Origin: a virus
Strand: one strand, 5' to 3'
Length of the DNA stretch: 20,854 bases
Virus genome (UHGV): UHGV-0059920
Shown: positions 9,368-20,854 of the stretch, one piece after another
Numbering within the stretch: position 1 is the stretch's first letter
Layout: the number at the start of each line of letters is the position of its first letter
Translations under genes and position numbers: made by a program
The notes under the pieces: generated by a model
The model's database searches: none
Told to the model about the DNA's origin: nothing
Seen by the model: the letters and a program-made list of their open reading frames with translations, nothing else

Positions 9368-11134
9368 ATGAACACCACACTGACACCCGCAGATCTCGAT
9401 CCCCGTCGGCAGGCCATGCTGCTGTACTTTCAGGGATACCGCGTAGCCCGCATTGCTGAAATGCTGGGCGAGAAAGTTGCAACCGTTCACAGCTGGAAAA
9501 AACGCGACAAGTGGGGTGACTATGGGCCTCTGGATCAGATGCAGCTCACCACCGCCGCACGCTACTGCCAGCTCATCATGAAGGAGCACAAAGAAGGGAA
9601 AGATTTCAAAGAGATTGACCTGCTGGCGCGCCAGTCTGAGCGCCACGCGCGGATCGGCAAGTTTAACAATGGCGGCAACGAAGCCGACTTAAACCCTAAC
9701 GTCGCCAACCGCAACAAAGGCCCACGCCGTCAGCCTGAAAAGAATGTTTTCACCGATGACCAGATTGAGAAGCTGGAAGAAATTTTCCATTCCTCCATGT
9801 TCAACTACCAGCGCCACTGGTGGGAAGCCGGAAAAACCAACCGCATCCGCAACCTGCTGAAGTCACGCCAGATCGGCGCGACCTTCTATTTTGCCCGTGA
9901 AGCCCTGATTGACGCCCTGCTTACCGGACGTAACCAGATTTTCCTTTCTGCCAGTAAGGCACAGGCCCACGTCTTCAAACAGTACATCATCGACTTTGCC
10001 AAAGAAGTGGAGGTGGAGCTGAAAGGCGATCCGATGGTGCTTCCCAACGGGGCCACACTGTATTTCCTCGGCACCAATGCCCGCACTGCCCAGAGTTATC
10101 ACGGCAACCTGTATCTGGATGAATATTTCTGGATACCGAAATTCCAGGAGCTGCGCAAAGTGGCTTCCGGTATGGCTATTCACAAGAAATGGCGACAGAC
10201 CTATTTTTCCACGCCATCCAGCCTGACCCACAGTGCTTATCCGTTCTGGTCCGGTGCGCTGTTCAACCGTGGGCGCAACAAAGCCGATAAGGTGGACATC
10301 GACCTGTCCCACAGCAATCTGGCTCCCGGCCTGCTGTGTGCAGACGGGCAATACCGCCAGATAGTCACCGTGGAAGATGCGGTGCGCGGCGGATGTAACC
10401 TGTTCGATCTCGACCAGTTGCGCATGGAGTACAGCCCGGACGAATACCAGAACCTGCTGATGTGCGAGTTCGTGGACGATCTCGCGTCCGTGTTCCCGCT
10501 CAGCGAACTGCAGGCGTGCATGGTGGACAGCTGGGAAGTCTGGACCGACTTTCATGCACTGGCCCTGCGCCCGTTTGGCTGGCGCGAAGTGTGGATCGGT
10601 TATGACCCGGCAAAAGGTACGCAGAACGGCGACAGTGCCGGATGCGTGGTGGTGGCTCCGCCAGCCGTGCCGGGTGGTAAGTTCCGCATTCTTGAGCGTC
10701 ACCAGTGGCGCGGGATGGACTTCCGCGCCCAGGCTGACGCCATCAAAAAACTGACCGAACAGTATAACGTGACCTATATCGGTATCGACTCGACCGGCGT
10801 CGGTCACGGGGTTTACGAGAACGTGAAAGCGTTTTTTCCTGCCGTCAGGGAGTTTGTCTATAACCCCAACGTTAAAAACGCCCTGGTACTCAAGGCCTAC
10901 GACATTATCAGCCACCGCCGTCTGGAGTTTGACGCCGGGCACACCGACATTGCGCAGTCATTTATGGCAATCCGTCGCGCTACCACTGCCAGTGGCAACC
11001 GCCCGACCTATGAAGCCAGCCGCAGCGAAGAAGCCAGCCATGCCGATCTGGCCTGGGCAACAATGCACGCACTGTTTAACGAACCACTGCAGGGCGAGTC
11101 CGCCAATACCAGCAATATTGTGGAGATTTTTTGA
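9368..11134 (+). CDS. P: Terminase ATPase (large) subunit P
   Basis: 588-aa ORF divergent from O; its stop overlaps the Q start (tgATG). Confidence 0.9.
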   Translation: MNTTLTPADLDPRRQAMLLYFQGYRVARIAEMLGEKVATVHSWKKRDKWGDYGPLDQMQLTTAARYCQLIMKEHKEGKDFKEIDLLARQSERHARIGKFNNGGNEADLNPNVANRNKGPRRQPEKNVFTDDQIEKLEEIFHSSMFNYQRHWWEAGKTNRIRNLLKSRQIGATFYFAREALIDALLTGRNQIFLSASKAQAHVFKQYIIDFAKEVEVELKGDPMVLPNGATLYFLGTNARTAQSYHGNLYLDEYFWIPKFQELRKVASGMAIHKKWRQTYFSTPSSLTHSAYPFWSGALFNRGRNKADKVDIDLSHSNLAPGLLCADGQYRQIVTVEDAVRGGCNLFDLDQLRMEYSPDEYQNLLMCEFVDDLASVFPLSELQACMVDSWEVWTDFHALALRPFGWREVWIGYDPAKGTQNGDSAGCVVVAPPAVPGGKFRILERHQWRGMDFRAQADAIKKLTEQYNVTYIGIDSTGVGHGVYENVKAFFPAVREFVYNPNVKNALVLKAYDIISHRRLEFDAGHTDIAQSFMAIRRATTASGNRPTYEASRSEEASHADLAWATMHALFNEPLQGESANTSNIVEIF

Positions 11135-12159
11135 TGGGAAAGAGTAAGAAGAACCGCGCTGCGTCGACGAAACAGATCCAGCATAAAGGCCAGACTTCAG
11201 CCGAAGCATTCAGCTTCGGTGATCCCGTTCCTGTTCTGGACCGCCGCGAACTGCTGGACTATGTGGAATGCGTACAGATGGATCGTTGGTATGAGCCGCC
11301 TGTGAGTTTCGACGGACTGGCGCGAACTTTCCGCGCCGCCGTGCATCACAGCTCACCGATTGCAGTGAAGTGCAACATTCTGACCAGCACCTACATCCCT
11401 CACCCGCTGCTCAGCCAGCAGGCTTTTTCGCGTTTTGTACAGGACTATCTGGTTTTTGGTAACGCCTACCTGGAGAAACGCACGAACCGTTTCGGTGAAG
11501 TTATCGCCCTTGAGCCTGCTCTGGCAAAATACACCCGACGCGGGTTAGACCTGGATACCTACTGGTTTGTGCAATACGGTATGACAACCCAGCCGTATCA
11601 GTTCACGAAAGGCAGCATTTTTCATCTGATGGAACCGGACATCAACCAGGAGATCTACGGCCTGCCAGGTTATCTTTCTGCCATTCCGTCAGCCCTGCTC
11701 AACGAGTCCGCCACGCTGTTCCGCCGTAAGTATTACATTAACGGCAGTCATGCAGGCTTCATCATGTACATGACCGATGCCGCGCAGAACCAGGAGGACG
11801 TGAACAACCTTCGCAATGCGATGAAAAGTGCCAAAGGACCAGGTAACTTCCGCAATCTGTTCATGTACTCGCCTAACGGCAAAAAGGACGGGCTTCAGAT
11901 CATCCCGTTGTCAGAAGTCGCGGCGAAGGATGAGTTTCTGAATATCAAAAATGTCAGCCGCGATGACATGATGGCTGCGCACCGTGTACCGCCACAAATG
12001 ATGGGAATCATGCCGAGTAATGTTGGGGGATTTGGTGATGTTGAAAAAGCCAGCCGCGTCTTTGTCCGCAACGAACTGATGACGTTACAGAAGCGACTGC
12101 AGGAGCTTAACGACTGGCTGGGCGAAGAAATAATTCGCTTCGAACCTTATATGTTTTAG
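11134..12159 (+). CDS. Q: Portal (capsid vertex) protein Q
   Basis: Start refined to ATG at 11134 with GGAG upstream (the ORF-track start at 11131 is a TTG); about 341 aa downstream of P. Confidence 0.9.
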   Translation: MGKSKKNRAASTKQIQHKGQTSAEAFSFGDPVPVLDRRELLDYVECVQMDRWYEPPVSFDGLARTFRAAVHHSSPIAVKCNILTSTYIPHPLLSQQAFSRFVQDYLVFGNAYLEKRTNRFGEVIALEPALAKYTRRGLDLDTYWFVQYGMTTQPYQFTKGSIFHLMEPDINQEIYGLPGYLSAIPSALLNESATLFRRKYYINGSHAGFIMYMTDAAQNQEDVNNLRNAMKSAKGPGNFRNLFMYSPNGKKDGLQIIPLSEVAAKDEFLNIKNVSRDDMMAAHRVPPQMMGIMPSNVGGFGDVEKASRVFVRNELMTLQKRLQELNDWLGEEIIRFEPYMF

Positions 12160-12204: not shown

Positions 12205-12498
12205 TTACTCTTTAACAAGTGTGCCCCACACCGAGTCTTCAACCTCTTCAACAACAATATTGATGTTGCAAATAACATGGTCTTCACTTACTCGAGTATA
12301 TCTGAATAACCTTGATTTCACTTTCCCACCAAACGACTCACGGTCTTCATTGTTGGTAATGTCGACATAATCCCCAACATTCGGAAGCATCAGGAGTGGA
12401 TTGTCTTCCGAAGAACATCTTACAATCTCTCCATCATCAAGAGGTCGCGTATCCCCTTTACGTAAGTATTGAAAGTCATAGTTGTATATGGTTTTCAT
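12205..12498 (-). CDS. Hypothetical 97-aa acidic protein; AT-rich cargo gene between portal gene and cos
   Basis: Single ATG start with AAGGA 8 nt upstream, terminator immediately downstream, visibly AT-rich codon usage unlike the flanking phage genes. No motif recognised. Confidence 0.55.
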   Translation of the reverse strand: MKTIYNYDFQYLRKGDTRPLDDGEIVRCSSEDNPLLMLPNVGDYVDITNNEDRESFGGKVKSRLFRYTRVSEDHVICNINIVVEEVEDSVWGTLVKE

Positions 12499-12740: not shown

Positions 12741-12770
12741 CAAAAGCCCGCCAGCTCTGGCGGGCATCAG
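12741..12770 (-). terminator. Rho-independent terminator, minus-strand orientation
   Basis: GCCCGCCAG-ctc-TGGCGGGC stem followed on the minus strand by TTTTGCTTG; sits after the HNH gene and before cos. Confidence 0.5.
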
Positions 12771-12878: not shown

Positions 12879-13598
12879 TTAGCCAAAGCAGAAACCAATA
12901 TTGCAATTTGAAACTCCACAGTTGTGAAATTGATGTGGACCTACTCTTAGCTTGTGTTCGTCTCCTACAATCCGAGTCCCCTTAACCAACATATCTAATC
13001 TTTCCACAATCAATCTTTCAGGCGCATCAACTTTAATAATTAAACGAGGACCTTTCCTTTTTTCTATAATAGTTATTCTAGGACCGACAACCTGAACATC
13101 CCAATGCCTTGCACTACAAACCCACTCATTCTTAATTAATTCAAGATTAACAATACCTTGACTATCGTAAAATTTACCCGAAATAAGAAAAGCATTATTT
13201 TCTTTTTCAATGGTTAACAATGGCTCATTTTGAAACATTATTGGTACAGTACAGGATTCAAACGTCGCACCACCAAATATTATTGTTGGATGCCTATCAG
13301 AAAAGTCCAATATATCGGCCACATTCCCTTTTTGTAAGGCTGCAGGAGATTCCATTGCTTTAATTATTTTCTCTTTAGAGTAAAGACGTTTCGTTACTTT
13401 CGCATGGCACGTAGGACAAAGTAGTGCTATTGCATTTGGAGAGTGCTCCTTTGCATCAGCGTATGTGGGAATTACATGCTCATACTCAACAATGGGAGAA
13501 GCACAAACAACGCAACCGAAGCCACAGCGCTGCCTTACCTCCAGTTTTACAGGTTCAGGAATTGTTCTAGATAACCCATGCTTGTTAATAGTTGTCAT
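12879..13598 (-). CDS. HNH (His-Me finger) nuclease-domain protein with an unrecognised C-terminal domain of about 170 aa; candidate defence or exclusion cargo
   Basis: N-terminal motif RCGFGCVVC...EYEHVIP...SPNAIALLCPTCHAK has the spacing of a zinc-bound HNH core (CxxC, EH, N, CxxCH). AAGGTAAGG RBS upstream; visibly AT-rich. It sits where P2 carries old/tin. Confidence 0.7.
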   Translation of the reverse strand: MTTINKHGLSRTIPEPVKLEVRQRCGFGCVVCASPIVEYEHVIPTYADAKEHSPNAIALLCPTCHAKVTKRLYSKEKIIKAMESPAALQKGNVADILDFSDRHPTIIFGGATFESCTVPIMFQNEPLLTIEKENNAFLISGKFYDSQGIVNLELIKNEWVCSARHWDVQVVGPRITIIEKRKGPRLIIKVDAPERLIVERLDMLVKGTRIVGDEHKLRVGPHQFHNCGVSNCNIGFCFG

Positions 13599-13649: not shown

Positions 13650-13720
13650 CTAACGCCTCGCACAGCTCGTTGTTCAACCTTGCTGACGCCAGAAGCAAGT
13701 TCAGACGCCAGCAACGTTTC

Positions 13721-13954
13721 TTAATGCAGCCAGCTGTCGTCTTCCCACACCTTCTGCATAATTTTCATCACTTGCTTCCTTTCTTCGTCCAGTTGCAGTC
13801 CGGTCAGTTCCACACCGTTAGAGCTACCTTTGCGGATGCGAATTACCGTTTTTGGATACAGGGGGCGCAGATTGCGGTAAAGCTCGGATTCAAGGGCGTC
13901 CAGGGTAGACTGGCTAATCTTCTGCTCTTTATCGATCATTATTTCAATGCGCAT
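13721..13954 (-). CDS. DinI-like protein (candidate Tum-like SOS antirepressor domain)
   Basis: Start refined to ATG at 13954 with GAGGTG upstream. MRIEIMIDK...LDALESEL...KIMQKVWEDDSW aligns by eye with E. coli DinI as recalled (MRIEVTIAK...IDALAGEL...WESADDW). Confidence 0.8.
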   Translation of the reverse strand: MRIEIMIDKEQKISQSTLDALESELYRNLRPLYPKTVIRIRKGSSNGVELTGLQLDEERKQVMKIMQKVWEDDSWLH

Positions 13955-13964
13955 AAAAGTCACC

Positions 13965-14153
13965 TCAGCTGATGACATCCATTGAGCGGTTGTATTCGTG
14001 GGTTCTGATTTTTGCCATGAGTTCATCTGTCAGTTCAGAAACCCACTGCAAAGCCAGCCCCTTCTCTTCATCACTACACTCACTAGCCGCTACAAGTTTA
14101 AGAAAAAAATCAATGCGCTGGAGCTTCAAAGACTCCAAAAAATAGTCCTGCAT
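13965..14153 (-). CDS. Small hypothetical protein (62 aa), first gene after the LexA box
   Basis: ATG at 14153 preceded by AGGAGGAAAG. Ends 10 nt before the DinI-like start, in a different frame. Confidence 0.5.
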   Translation of the reverse strand: MQDYFLESLKLQRIDFFLKLVAASECSDEEKGLALQWVSELTDELMAKIRTHEYNRSMDVIS

Positions 14154-14194
14154 CTTTCCTCCTATGACACCACAAGCAATACTGTATGTATAAC

Positions 14195-14237
14195 CACTGT
14201 TTATATTTACAGTATATAATAATCTTACTGATGTAAA
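14195..14237 (-). promoter_or_regulatory. LexA (SOS) box overlapping a sigma70-like promoter for the small-ORF/DinI-like operon
   Basis: CTGT-ttatattt-ACAG at 14197-14212; as a 20-mer on the minus strand it reads TACTGTAAATATAAACAGTG against consensus TACTGTATATATATACAGTA. Minus-strand -35 TTTACA (14232-14237) and -10 TATACT (14211-14216) with a 15-nt spacer. Confidence 0.6.
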
Positions 14238-14306
14238 ACGTTTTTTTACGTTCATCAGCCTGATATGCCTGGTATTATTAAGAGCACGAATTGTTAACCC
14301 GCGTAA

Positions 14307-16679
14307 TTAATACAGGTTTCGCCACTTATCATCTTCCTGCAAACGCTGGTTCCGATAGAAGATACGCAGGCCTGCTCCTGACGGAATACTGCCGCCGCGA
14401 AGGAGTAAATCGACCTCTTTCTCGCTGCCATCAAATCCTCTGGACTTCAGTTCATAGACGAGCTGCTGTCGCTGATGGTCTGTAATTCGCTGTTTGTAGT
14501 CTTTACGCCGTTTCGGTTTCACCAGGCGTAACCTTGCAGCTAGTTCCCGGCGCTCTTTTTTGCTCATACTGTGCAGGTAATCGTGCAACGCCTTGTCATC
14601 CATGCGGGTAATGTCCGTCCTGGTATCCCCATCAGCTGATTTGTCTTTCCCTTGTTGGTTCAAATTTTCAGCAAGGGGACAGTTATTGCCACGAGTCCAA
14701 GGGGCGCAAGCGCCCTGGTCGGCTGCCGCCTCCTGAACATCAACGGCCTTACGAACCATTTTCCACTTCACGGCATGAGTGCAGATCTTGCCCTCTGCAA
14801 TAGGTGACCAGATGCCATAAATACGAATGCCGTGATCGCCATAGGCGGTCGGCTCTTCGTTGATTTCATAAGCGGTTCTGATGAGGTGATATTTGCGGGG
14901 AACCAGTACGCCGCCCTGCTTCATGATGTAGGTGGCAAAACAACCAGCATCAGCAGCAGCCAGGATGGCATCAAGGCGCGGGTTATCCAGTACCGGCGCA
15001 CCTGCTTTTTTGTCCCCCTGTTGCCTTGCCGCCTGACCAGCCAGCAATCGCAGTTCACGGTAAGCCTGACGCCCCGGAATGCCAAAGAAGCGGAATTGCT
15101 GAACACGATGCAGAGACGCCCAGGCATTAACGTATTCAGCATTATCACGCAGGGATTTCCCCGTTTCCTTGCTGATCTCGCCAGCCAGACCACGCCCGTC
15201 AATGTTCTTACTGATGTATTTCGCGATGTAGCTTGTTGGCGTACCTTTGCGCGGGTTAATCAACTCAGACTTAAAGCGCGGCCCAGTGTTATTGCCCAGT
15301 TCCTCGCGGTCTTCACGGATGGCAAACTTACGCAGTAATGCAGTGATGGCGCGGCGGTCTTTTTTGCGCATAAAACACAACAGGTGCCAGTGAACTGTAC
15401 CGTCATGATGCGGCTCAGCCACCCGCACGCCATACCACCGCAATCCGGCTTTGTGCATCGCCTTACGAAATGCAGCAAACATGCCGACCAGATAATCACT
15501 GCTTTGTCTTACCGTCGCATTTGTCCAAGTTGGGTTGGGCCTGCCATTATTTAGCGTGGAATGGAAACGTGACGGACAGGTGATGGTGTAGAAAACGGCG
15601 CAGTCACCGCGCATTTCCGCGATAAGCTCCAGGCCTTTAACACAGGCCATCATCTCATTGCGGCGATGCGCAGGGTTGCTGCTGCTGGCGTTTACCACAT
15701 CCTCCATGTCCAGCGTGTCGCCGTCTTCGTTCACCAGTTCATGAGAACGAAAAAACTCCAGCGACTTACGGCGCTGCTCACGTTTATGCATCACGGCTTC
15801 ATAGCTGACATAGGGAGATGCTTTTTTGCTGACCAGGCAGACAGCACGCAACTGCTCTTCCCGCCATTCGCAACGCATCTTCCATAATTTCCGGTACCAC
15901 CAGTCAGCGCACAACATACGCGCCAGCGAACCCGGAATGAGTTCATAGGGCACGGGTTTACGGCGGTTTCTTTTCCGGCGGAGTTGCTCAAACGCAGGCG
16001 GGATGACATCCAGACGCAGGGTTTCCGCTGCCACCTTTTCCCATGTCTTGCGGATTTCTTCTGGCTTAACGTCATCGGTGACATACAAATCGCCACAAGC
16101 TGCATCAAGGCACATGCTCATATGCGCAGCTACCAGGGTGGACAGGCGTTTCACCTGATCCTGACTCATTTCAGGCAGGATCAGCAGGCCGTCCAGCCCT
16201 TCATGGCTTGCCATAAAGCGAAAAGAAGTGGATAGCTGACAGTCGCGTACATGCTCCAGCCGTTCCAGACATGGCTTAATCGTCTCACGCAAATAGCGGG
16301 AATAAGCCTTTGGCCTGCCCAGGCTGCTGAAGTATTCAATACGTTGCATCAGTGGCTTGCTGATATGGGAAGGCTGGGCATTAACGTCCGCCAGAATGAC
16401 CATATCTGGATTAAAACGCTGCTGCTCATGCGCCAGCTTTGCCCGACTAATGAGCTTATCCTGCTCCATTTCGCGCTGGACAGGATCACGGGATTCATTA
16501 AAGAAATAACGCTCCCAGACCTGATCACTCAGTGCCTCGCGGCGCAGCTGTTCCTGCTCGTTATCGGCAGCGTACAGAGCGATCAGGTTTGAAAGCGCAG
16601 AAACTGAAGATTGCTCTTCCGTCTCTACGTAAGGATTGATTGCTTTTTTCTCAGCATTCCAGGAATAGCTGTAGTTCAT
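14307..16679 (-). CDS. A: Replication initiator endonuclease A (rolling-circle nickase)
   Basis: About 790 aa with HxH metal motif ([11 protein letters not shown]) and the active-site tyrosine region ([12 protein letters not shown]). Start taken as ATG at 16679, overlapping the upstream stop (TAATG); the ORF-track start at 16730 is a TTG. Confidence 0.9.
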
Positions 16680-17500
16680 TACGCAATCTCCAGTTCGAGC
16701 TGTGAAGGCTGCAAACCATTCGACAGCCAATCAGAAACTGAAGGTGGGCGAACAGCTTCAATTGCACCTTTTAAAATTGCGCAACGGTTTTTCAGAATGA
16801 CAGCTTTCAGCTCCTTTTCCGTCAGATTGCGCGAATACTCAGCCTCCTGAATAGCCCGCGTCAGCTCAGGATATTTGCTATTAAATTTGGGGACATTGCA
16901 GGCAAGATTTGTACTGTCGGCAGTCGCCAGTGGGTAATTTCCCAACACACGACCGTCAAGCATGCGCAAACCATGAACAGCTGTTTTGAAATTGTGTCGG
17001 CAATAAATTGCTTCAAAAGCGTCCTGCATACGACGATGCCAGTGCGCAGTTCTGATAGCCGCATATTCACCAGACGATCCAAAGCAGACACGAGGCCATT
17101 CACGACATAGCTCGATAAGCCGATCGATTGACTCGTGCAGATGCCAGACGGGAGTTGCCTTCCCGTAGAACATTTTCGGAACTTCGTTTATCAGGGCATC
17201 ATTGTCACGTTCACCTCCGTCCACAACATCAGGAATGACAAAAAAAGCGACCTTAGGATGGTGGTAATAGTTCAGGAGCCATTTATAAAAATCACTCCAG
17301 TTAATTTTTAGCCCACGCACCCATGCAGAAAATGCGCCGTTATCAATGCCGACGACCTGAGCGTGCTGAATGGACGCCGCAATCTGATCTGGTCGTACAT
17401 AGGAGACGAAAGCGCCAGCTCCGCTCACCGCAATACGATGAACGTCGCCAGCACTTCCCCAGACAGGCGTCCCATGGAAATGATGAATTCCGTGGTGCAT
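16679..17500 (-). CDS. Hypothetical protein of about 273 aa, translationally coupled between dam and A
   Basis: ATG at 17500, 5 nt after the Dam stop; its own stop overlaps the A start. No motif I can assign by eye. Confidence 0.6.
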
Positions 17501-20161: not shown

Positions 20162-20233
20162 AAGGCAACATCTCCTGTTTAAGTGTGTTTAACATTGACG
20201 AGTAGTTGTAAGTCACATTTTGAAATCAATGCG

Positions 20234-20262
20234 ACTATAAGATCACAAATTGAAATCGTCAA
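20234..20262 (-). promoter_or_regulatory. Early lytic promoter (Pe/pR-like) for the Cox/Apl-B-A operon
   Basis: Minus strand TTGACG-17 nt-TATAGT (-35 at 20257-20262, -10 at 20234-20239) in the repressor/Cox intergenic region. Confidence 0.55.
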
Positions 20263-20287
20263 CCATAAAGTTCACAAGGTGAAATCG

Positions 20288-20854
20288 ATGGATTTTAGTC
20301 AAGGTGGAAAGAAAGCTATCGAAAGGATGGTTGAAGCCTATGGGTTCACTACAAGACAGGCGTTATGTGAACAACTAGGCATATCAAAAAGCAGTCTTGC
20401 TACACGCTACATGAGAGATTCATTCCCTTCTGATTGGGTTATTCAGTGCGCGCTCGAAACAGGAGTAAACATAAAGTGGCTGGTAACAGGCTTACCTCCT
20501 AAACATGAATATTTAACGTCTGACATCATCAATATTCAAAAAATAAAATTGATTGATGGAGTGCTATTGGATGCAGGAACACTAATGTTTGACAAAGTGT
20601 TCATTCCTGATGGTTTATCATCACCATCTGTGATATCAAACGGGAATAACTCTTATTTTATTGAGAGGGATTTCACAGATGTAGTTGATGGTGATTGGTT
20701 AATCTCCATTGATGGAAAGCATTCTATAAAACAAGTTATTAGAATTCCTGATAATAAAGTTAAGATTAACTATGGGAATATCATTGTTGATATGAACATT
20801 AATGACCTTGTATTCATCGGCAAAGTTATAGCAGAATTCAAGATAAGAGGCTAA
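20288..20854 (+). CDS. cI: CI-type immunity repressor (186-like, no obvious LexA-like autocleavage motif)
   Basis: Start refined to ATG at 20288 with AAGGTG upstream; about 188 aa. Segments EAYGF and CALETGVNIKWLVTG resemble 186 CI as recalled; no S24 peptidase motif seen. Ends with TAA at the window edge. Confidence 0.78.
   Translation: MDFSQGGKKAIERMVEAYGFTTRQALCEQLGISKSSLATRYMRDSFPSDWVIQCALETGVNIKWLVTGLPPKHEYLTSDIINIQKIKLIDGVLLDAGTLMFDKVFIPDGLSSPSVISNGNNSYFIERDFTDVVDGDWLISIDGKHSIKQVIRIPDNKVKINYGNIIVDMNINDLVFIGKVIAEFKIRG

Follow-up and report, generated by a model that had tools for sequence, protein, structure and literature searches.

In phage 186, the SOS operon is annotated as the promoter p95, whose -10 hexamer is overlaid by a LexA site, followed by tum, the partial terminator t95a, orf97 and the terminator t95b. 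Its product Tum is annotated as a protein that "inhibits CI DNA binding", and the binding of Tum to its cognate repressor is cited by Lemire et al. (Lemire et al., 2011; PMC3121763). The tum gene is split in two in Fels-2 and PSP3, and the antirepressor activity of PSP3 lies in the upstream gene (Lemire et al., 2011); the sources given there are Bunny et al. (2002) and G. Christie (personal communication). The present analysis deals with a split tum module in the virus genome UHGV-0059920, of which one stretch of 20,854 nucleotides (nt), referred to here as the window, was analysed. Two short open reading frames (ORFs) on its minus strand, ORF1 of 62 amino acids (aa) and ORF2 of 77 aa, are named tumA and tumB, and the region is very probably the operon through which the SOS response induces a Fels-2/186-type (P2-family) prophage, here in its "split tum" version. 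An initial annotation, made from the sequence without database searches, had proposed that a LexA-controlled, Tum-like module makes this 186-type prophage SOS-inducible. The core of that proposal holds, supported by a non-cleavable CI, by the homologies of both ORFs and by the genetics of a near-identical copy in Escherichia coli HS.

Several described loci can be set beside this one. The GenBank record of PSP3 annotates tumA as "similar to 5' end 186 tum; UV induction of prophage" and tumB as "similar to dinI and 3' end of 186 tum". In DuoHS, a prophage of E. coli HS, "tum (locus tag ECHS_RS04495)" was deleted by start-stop fusion, and this deletion, or a lexA(Ind-) allele, abolished mitomycin C-induced lysis in the Phollow study (Nat Microbiol 2025). 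The partner gene in DuoHS is ECHS_RS04500, and that in Fels-2 is the DinI-like STM2726.1. Gifsy-1, -2 and -3 offer a likeness of arrangement: their LexA-repressed operons pair a small antirepressor (GfoA, GftA and GfhA) with a DinI homologue and serve to induce a prophage whose repressor is not cleaved (PMC3121763). However, dinI comes first in the Gifsy operons, which is the reverse of the order in the tum module, the phages are lambdoid and the repressor belongs to another family.

Identity and position of the tum module

The tumA gene occupies positions 13965-14153 on the minus strand, with its ATG at 14153 and a TGA stop codon at 13967-13965, and is preceded by the Shine-Dalgarno (SD) sequence AGGAGG (14158-14163, minus strand), which is conserved in all compared loci. 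Its product is identical at 61 of 62 residues to STM2728 of Fels-2 and to ECHS_RS04495 of E. coli HS. With a profile of 30 ORF1 sequences, built with distant relatives from a representative search, hhalign aligned residues 3-44 of ORF1 with residues 3-44 of 186 Tum (probability 93.5%, E 2.4e-7). ORF1 matches PHROG 698, PHROG 8554 (Yersinia "tum protein", 2.4e-8) and PHROG 1993 (PSP3 TumA, 0.0022). Conversely, residues 1-70 of 186 Tum match PHROG 698, the family of ORF1, at 5.9e-6, and the PHROG matches of the N-terminal half of Tum are 189, 1993, 8554 and 698. PSP3 TumA matches PHROG 1993, and the Yersinia "tum protein" matches 8554, 698, 1993 and 189. The profile alignment and these reciprocal cross-matches place ORF1 in the Tum/TumA antirepressor family by N-terminal homology, although PSP3 TumA is only about 20% identical to TumA of the window and falls in PHROG 1993 instead of 698. 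In the comparison with 186 Tum that the initial annotation had proposed as a check, ORF1 maps to the N-terminal half of Tum and ORF2 to the C-terminal half.

The AlphaFold2 model of TumA (predicted local distance difference test, pLDDT, 89) has helices at residues 2-23 and 28-61, so that a two-helix hairpin is predicted with good confidence; it has an invariant Trp37 and, at the turn, a near-invariant Cys26. A Foldseek search of the PDB with this model returned generic helical hairpins only, all at E > 1, a sequence search of the PDB with TumA returned nothing, and neither did a PADLOC search with TumA and TumB. In RefSeq E. coli genomes tumA is labelled "hypothetical protein", and one UniRef cluster and one phage record carry a tumA homologue under the name "levan regulatory (domain) protein".

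The copies in DuoHS and Fels-2 resemble the module of the window beyond TumA. TumB is identical in all 77 residues, the promoter and double SOS box differ in only 1-2 bases, and the module likewise follows gpA. The junction primer of the HS deletion, ATAGGAGGAAAGATGTGAGGTGACTTTTATGCGCATTG, matches the flanks of ORF1 in the window, and the deletion that it marks leaves tumB and its SD sequence in place.

The window is of the Fels-2/186 type, and its tum module sits at the position of the 186 SOS operon, just downstream of gpA, where the variable region that precedes cos and the portal gene begins. The replication gene gpA (14307-16730, minus strand) lies directly upstream of the module, the portal gene (11131-12159, plus strand) converges on it from the other side, and the gene order around the module is identical in 186, PSP3, Fels-2 and HS. 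Phage 186 shares with the window the position, the promoter logic and the order of the modules, and its operon likewise continues into a cargo gene, while PSP3 has the same two-gene layout with a LexA box over the -10 hexamer. The CI gene (20183-20854) encodes a protein that matched PF07022 and PF16452 but not Peptidase_S24 in a profile search, which makes it a CI of the 186 type that lacks a self-cleavage domain. The CII of the window carries PF06892 and is also of the 186 type.

The module is widespread. A query of 721 nt around it found matches in 1125 of 5426 complete E. coli genomes (about 21%), with at least 80% of the query spanned in 1071 of them, and it also matched 69 records of Klebsiella, Salmonella, Escherichia and Yersinia phages.

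A predicted double LexA operator over the tum promoter

The tum promoter, the counterpart of p95 in 186, was read from the sequence as a -35 hexamer TTTACA (14232-14237, minus strand) and a -10 hexamer TACTGT (14209-14214, minus strand) separated by a spacer of 17 nt. The same arrangement of TTTACA, 17 nt and TACTGT is invariant in the window, HS, Fels-2, SopEPhi, MLG42, ST13 and ST437, although the sequence of the spacer diverges, and the annotated p95 of 186 has the same TACTGT, likewise inside a LexA site and in the same layout. A generic promoter scanner failed to list the tum promoter because TACTGT shares only three of six bases with TATAAT. SOS box 1, TACTGTAAATATAAACAGTG (14195-14214, minus strand), begins with the six bases of the -10 hexamer; it agrees with the consensus TACTGTATATATATACAGTA at 17 of 20 bases and has a perfect CTGT-N8-ACAG core. 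The 16-nt core pattern occurs once in the window and at least once in 23 of 100 shuffled sequences, and is thus weak evidence when taken alone. With the 20-mer consensus and up to three mismatches, box 1 is the single match in the window and none of the 100 shuffles gives a match. Box 1 is kept in all related loci compared, and its overlap with the -10 hexamer of its own promoter is established at the level of sequence. The initial annotation had described a near-consensus SOS box over the -10 of a minus-strand promoter, and this is confirmed; indeed each of the features that it listed (promoter, SOS box, ribosome-binding site and the 62-aa and 77-aa ORFs) lies where it had been placed.

The operator is nevertheless double and not the single box that was described, since a second, SOS-like box had been missed. 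Box 2, CAGTGGTTATACATACAGTA (14180-14199, minus strand), overlaps box 1, and the two 16-nt cores share one base. Its left half is degenerate (GTGG) and its right half matches the consensus, which in sequence is the architecture of the colicin-type double operator. The complete operator of 35 nt, TACTGTAAATATAAACAGTGGTTATACATACAGTA, aligns base for base with AACTGTATATAAAACCAGTGGTTATATATACAGTA, found upstream of colicin genes on Col plasmids. A BLAST search with the promoter region returned 751 plasmid records, mostly of small and mobilizable plasmids, with 80-90% identity over exactly the operator stretch; two of these records were inspected, and in both of them colicin genes lie just downstream of the operator. 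In colicin operons the two overlapping boxes are reported to bind two LexA dimers, with very low or undetectable basal expression (PMC2994835). The phage and plasmid operators thus have the same pair of overlapping boxes, but the phage site drives an antirepressor and the colicin site a toxin.

Among the phages, 55 of 71 Fels-2-type tumA loci retain the half-sites of box 2, with variable spacer bases, whereas only one SOS box is present in each of the 38 loci of PSP3, 186 or Yersinia type. LexA would be expected to bind both boxes of the window, perhaps as two cooperating dimers like those described for the colicin operators. The double operator suggests that the switch may be tighter and fire later in the Fels-2 group. 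No mention of a double operator in a Fels-2-type tum was found in the literature searched, in which the primary Fels-2 paper was not covered.

Two genes under separate selection

The tumB gene (13721-13954, minus strand) has its ATG at 13954 and its TAA stop codon at 13723-13721. It follows tumA after a gap of 10 nt and in a different frame, and its SD sequence GAGGTG (13961-13966, minus strand) overlaps the stop codon of tumA. The initial annotation had left three options for this pair, namely one tum gene requiring a frameshift, two separate genes, or a pseudogenised tum. Only the second of these stands. tumA and tumB are two genes, neither a frameshifted nor a decaying tum, because purifying selection acts strongly on each ORF and their frame offset is not constant among phages. 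Across seven phages, the ratio of nonsynonymous to synonymous substitution rates (dN/dS) is 0.03-0.12 for both ORFs, with dS of up to about 2, and 0.00-0.10 for tumB taken alone. In six phages tumB starts 13, 14, 15, 16, 14 and 6 nt from the tumA stop, and all three frame relations occur. An SD-like purine run and an ATG belonging to tumB itself are kept in all loci, with an intergenic length of 10-13 nt.

A single gene of the 186 kind, read through by programmed frameshifting or stop-codon read-through, would be conceivable from 186 itself, where both halves form one Tum of 146 aa, and from PSP3 and MLG42, where the two ORFs are in the same frame with a stop codon between them. In the window, however, such a single polypeptide is interrupted by a stop codon, a 10-nt gap and a change of frame. 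The occurrence of all three frame relations across the six phages makes conserved recoding impossible, tumB has its own SD sequence and ATG everywhere, and the linker of about 22 aa that joins the modules of 186 Tum is absent from the split form. No conserved slippery site or stimulatory structure was found among the compared phages, and this explanation is very unlikely.

Decay of a once-fused gene broken by mutation is more improbable still, even though the split could be taken for a disrupted 186 gene. The purifying selection on both ORFs, with low dN/dS persisting at dS of up to about 2, refutes a pseudogene. The split is moreover the majority form among the loci fetched (93 split against 9 fused, in a set biased by the way in which it was collected), and split versions of the 186-type N-terminal module are among them. 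The small protein stands alone in 484 matching protein clusters (E <= 0.01), and among the 120 ORF1 homologues listed of these 484 clusters none carries a precomputed DinI domain. The presence of the module in about a fifth of complete E. coli genomes, together with a functional, near-identical copy in HS, also speaks against decay. With tumA and tumB taken as two genes, it is 186 that appears as the exception, having fused both modules by its linker and re-created the DinI-like part from internal starts.

In the window, HS and Fels-2, the stop codon of tumA and the SD sequence of tumB lie within a small hairpin, GTCATCAGCTGAGGTGAC (13976-13959, minus strand). Translational coupling by this hairpin was considered as a conserved mechanism and rejected, since the stem is lost in SopEPhi, MLG42, ST13 and ST437; any role of the hairpin in coupling would be specific to a lineage.

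Roles of TumA and TumB

The DinI-like identity of the 77-aa ORF, which the initial annotation had recognised, is borne out by the Pfam family DinI (PF06183; E 6.6e-23, 81.3 bits against a cut-off of 24.2), with the match covering profile positions 1-63 of 63. TumB belongs to phrog_189. It is 41% identical to residues 71-145 of 186 Tum (E 3e-24), 78% identical to PSP3 TumB and 100% identical (77/77) to the DinI-like proteins of HS and Fels-2. Residues 1-75 align end to end with residues 1-77 of the E. coli DinI structure 1GHH, and this alignment places the acidic C-terminal W-E-D-D-S-W segment of DinI in TumB as well. The NCBIfam equivalog for chromosomal DinI (NF007893) gives TumB 42.7 bits, below its 111-bit cut-off, and TumB classifies as a phage DinI-like paralogue and not as DinI itself. 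It probably binds RecA filaments as DinI does.

The initial annotation had proposed testing whether the DinI-like protein binds CI. That test is aimed at the wrong partner, as the assignment in PSP3 and the deletion in HS point to the small upstream protein. TumA is very probably the antirepressor and TumB an accessory protein, on the basis of the PSP3 and HS data and of the comparison of loci.

Several findings weigh against this assignment and against a Tum-like TumA that acts on CI. BLASTP of ORF1 against 186 Tum gave zero alignments, and a shallow profile-profile comparison (Neff, the effective number of sequences, 1.5) gave only P 5.8e-4; the link between ORF1 and Tum rests on the deeper profiles because the first search was empty and the second only suggestive. 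The evidence on induction belongs to the HS copy, identical at 61 of 62 residues. The 186 annotation gives antirepression to the full-length protein of 146 aa, and the HS deletion could have reduced translation of tumB, so that TumB may have contributed to the outcome of that experiment. Finally, seven phages with CI proteins of only 39-63% identity have TumA proteins that are 84-98% identical. Covariation of TumA with CI, which would be expected of a specific antirepressor, was examined and rejected, as TumA identity follows the neighbouring gpA and not CI.

Some of these points would fit a scheme in which the DinI-like TumB inactivates CI, or has to be present for its inactivation, and TumA alone does not suffice, as could be anticipated if 186 depends on the complete Tum. 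The 186 annotation treats the forms shorter than 146 aa as modulators, tumA and tumB are tightly linked and possibly coupled in translation, with a 10-nt gap and the SD sequence over the stop codon, and complementation by tumA alone is absent from the examined text of the Phollow study. Against this scheme, the antirepressor activity of PSP3 is assigned to the upstream gene, and the HS deletion kept tumB and its SD sequence, yet induction was abolished. A LexA-boxed tumA occurs in the absence of a DinI-like gene in ESSI2_ev015, ESSI-2 and vB_YenM_06.16-2. In the Gifsy prophages, non-polar deletions of dinI had no significant effect on induction (PMC3121763). An indispensable TumB is therefore unlikely.

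The mismatch between TumA and CI raises a different alternative, in which the target by which TumA triggers induction would not be CI but something else, such as the Apl/CII circuitry or a host factor. It is favoured by the near-constancy of TumA beside divergent CI proteins and by its tracking of gpA. On the other hand, the 186 annotation and the Tum-repressor binding cited above both point to CI, and the seven CI proteins share one segment of the helix-turn-helix (HTH) domain that could serve as a common docking surface for TumA. This segment (alignment columns 61-90) is 80-87% identical in the seven proteins as against 13-45% elsewhere and reads approximately S-K-S-x-x-A-x-R-Y-x-R-D-S-F-P-x-x-W-V-I-Q-C-A-L-E-T-G-x-S-L-x-W-L-x-T-G; the stretch differs in phages with other types of TumA. 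A target outside CI is unlikely. The comparison suggests either a broad-range TumA that docks on the HTH patch or another TumA target. DuoHS and Fels-2 themselves illustrate the mismatch, as their CI proteins differ from that of the window (47% identity for HS and 39% for Fels-2). The CI of PSP3 (locus L014, 2219-3079) is 286 aa long and by eye appears to have two tandem N-terminal HTH copies, and the CI proteins of the other phages compared are roughly 190-210 aa long.

A structured RNA element and the cargo region

Directly after tumB lies a conserved element of 69 nt in the 3'-untranslated region (13650-13718, minus strand), which had been missed earlier. It consists of an 18-bp hairpin (13718-13676) whose 3' arm enters the near-invariant motif GGTTGAACAACGAG-N4-GCGAGGCGTTAG (13679-13650). 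Homology with other phages runs about 70 nt past the tumB stop codon and breaks off precisely at 13650, the start of the variable cargo. A pattern scan found the element on more than 120 viral contigs among the matches listed. Across 105 distinct sequences, 93% of the cells are paired; column shuffles give 80.6%, none of the 500 being as high as the real alignment, and pairing falls to 31-48% when the hairpin partners are slid. Compensatory changes on both sides are seen in 13 of the 18 hairpin pairs. The hairpin alignment contains 164 G-U cells against 19 A-C cells, which places the constraint on the sense-strand RNA of the tum operon. No U run follows the stem, and the element is therefore not a classical terminator. 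Neither the window nor the element has a match in Rfam, searching the window for another copy of the 30-nt motif, or for a target complementary to it, gave nothing beyond chance, and a full-text literature search for the motif sequence returned no paper.

The placement of the element differs among the related phages. PSP3 has the same hairpin and motif after tumB, and in PSP3-like phages orf37 is flanked by two direct copies, 405 nt apart (PSP3, locus L014, 8553-8626 and 8958-9031). In 186 the element follows orf97 instead, just upstream of the annotated t95b (locus L013, 9342-9415). Fels-2 and DuoHS lack it, and their tumB runs directly into another gene, whereas in the window the element is followed by a gene for an HNH-domain protein. 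The gene after tumB in Fels-2 is 732 bp long, which is the length of 186 orf97 (a comparison of length only). The element marks the left edge of a variable (defence/cargo) hotspot, and in the PSP3-like phages it is duplicated around the inserted gene. It may act as a processing or stability signal, as a 3'-derived regulatory RNA or as a signal for cargo exchange. Tentatively, it can be viewed as an undescribed RNA family of P2/186-type phages, made up of the hairpin and a single-stranded motif of 30 nt. It could serve as a regulatory RNA of the 3'-untranslated region, as a processing signal that gates SOS transcription into the cargo or as an RNA/DNA signal for cargo exchange. A broad-range TumA of the Fels-2 type is a further, lesser possibility.

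The cargo gene next to the element (12879-13598, minus strand) encodes an HNH-domain protein of 239 aa with PF01844 in its N-terminal part and a match to phrog_6544, an uncharacterised family, over its full length. A 97-aa protein of phrog_12676 (12205-12498, minus strand) is encoded further along the variable region between tumB and the portal gene. The 97-aa ORF had no match in PADLOC, and the HNH protein had no more than a marginal match to type IV restriction (E 0.0095), so that neither fits a defence-system model convincingly. In NZ_CP054407, an E. coli record with a 100% match to the tum region, the gap between the HNH gene and the portal gene is 360 nt, shorter than that of the window, and has no annotated gene. 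A scan of the window found no intrinsic-terminator-like site on the minus strand between tumB and the HNH gene, and a promoter scan found no consensus-like minus-strand promoter between 13650 and 13599. The first intrinsic-terminator-like hairpin with a T run after the tum promoter (12746-12765, minus strand; GCCCGCCAGAGCTGGCGGGC then TTTTGCTTGT) lies downstream of the HNH gene. It is plausible that the HNH gene is a distal gene of the SOS transcript, reached by read-through with the RNA element in its path, as the initial annotation had supposed. In 186, p95 transcripts are annotated as passing t95a and ending at t95b.

Proposed mechanism and implications

The following course of events may be proposed. 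In the lysogen, LexA would occupy the double operator over the -10 hexamer and the start region and keep the operon silent. Upon DNA damage, active RecA would bring about the self-cleavage of LexA and the operon would be transcribed. TumA, as a predicted helical hairpin of 62 residues, would then inactivate the 186-type CI, which cannot cleave itself, presumably by direct contact, and the lytic promoter would open. TumB, translated from its own ribosome-binding site, would most likely act on RecA filaments and tune the SOS signal, and would be dispensable for the inactivation of CI. Transcription might extend by read-through into the HNH cargo.

The tum module has already been described, and the finding itself is low in novelty because the module is known and has been genetically validated in a copy one residue apart. 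Its value lies mainly in annotation, as an unlabelled gene can be given a demonstrated function. The parts worth following up are the double operator, the RNA element after tumB and the mismatch between TumA and CI.

For the biology of these phages, tumA acts as the switch that induces a prophage family found in about one-fifth of complete E. coli genomes and in phages of Salmonella, Klebsiella and Yersinia. Where tumA is recognised, the prophage is likely to be SOS-inducible, for example by fluoroquinolones or mitomycin C, cargo downstream of the module may be co-induced, and a precise deletion of tumA offers a clean way of locking the prophage. If TumA is broad-range, a single damaged cell could co-induce heteroimmune prophages of the P2 family. 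The double operator, the 3' RNA element and the use of one TumA with many CI types provide leads on how tightly such prophages are held and how their cargo regions are organised.

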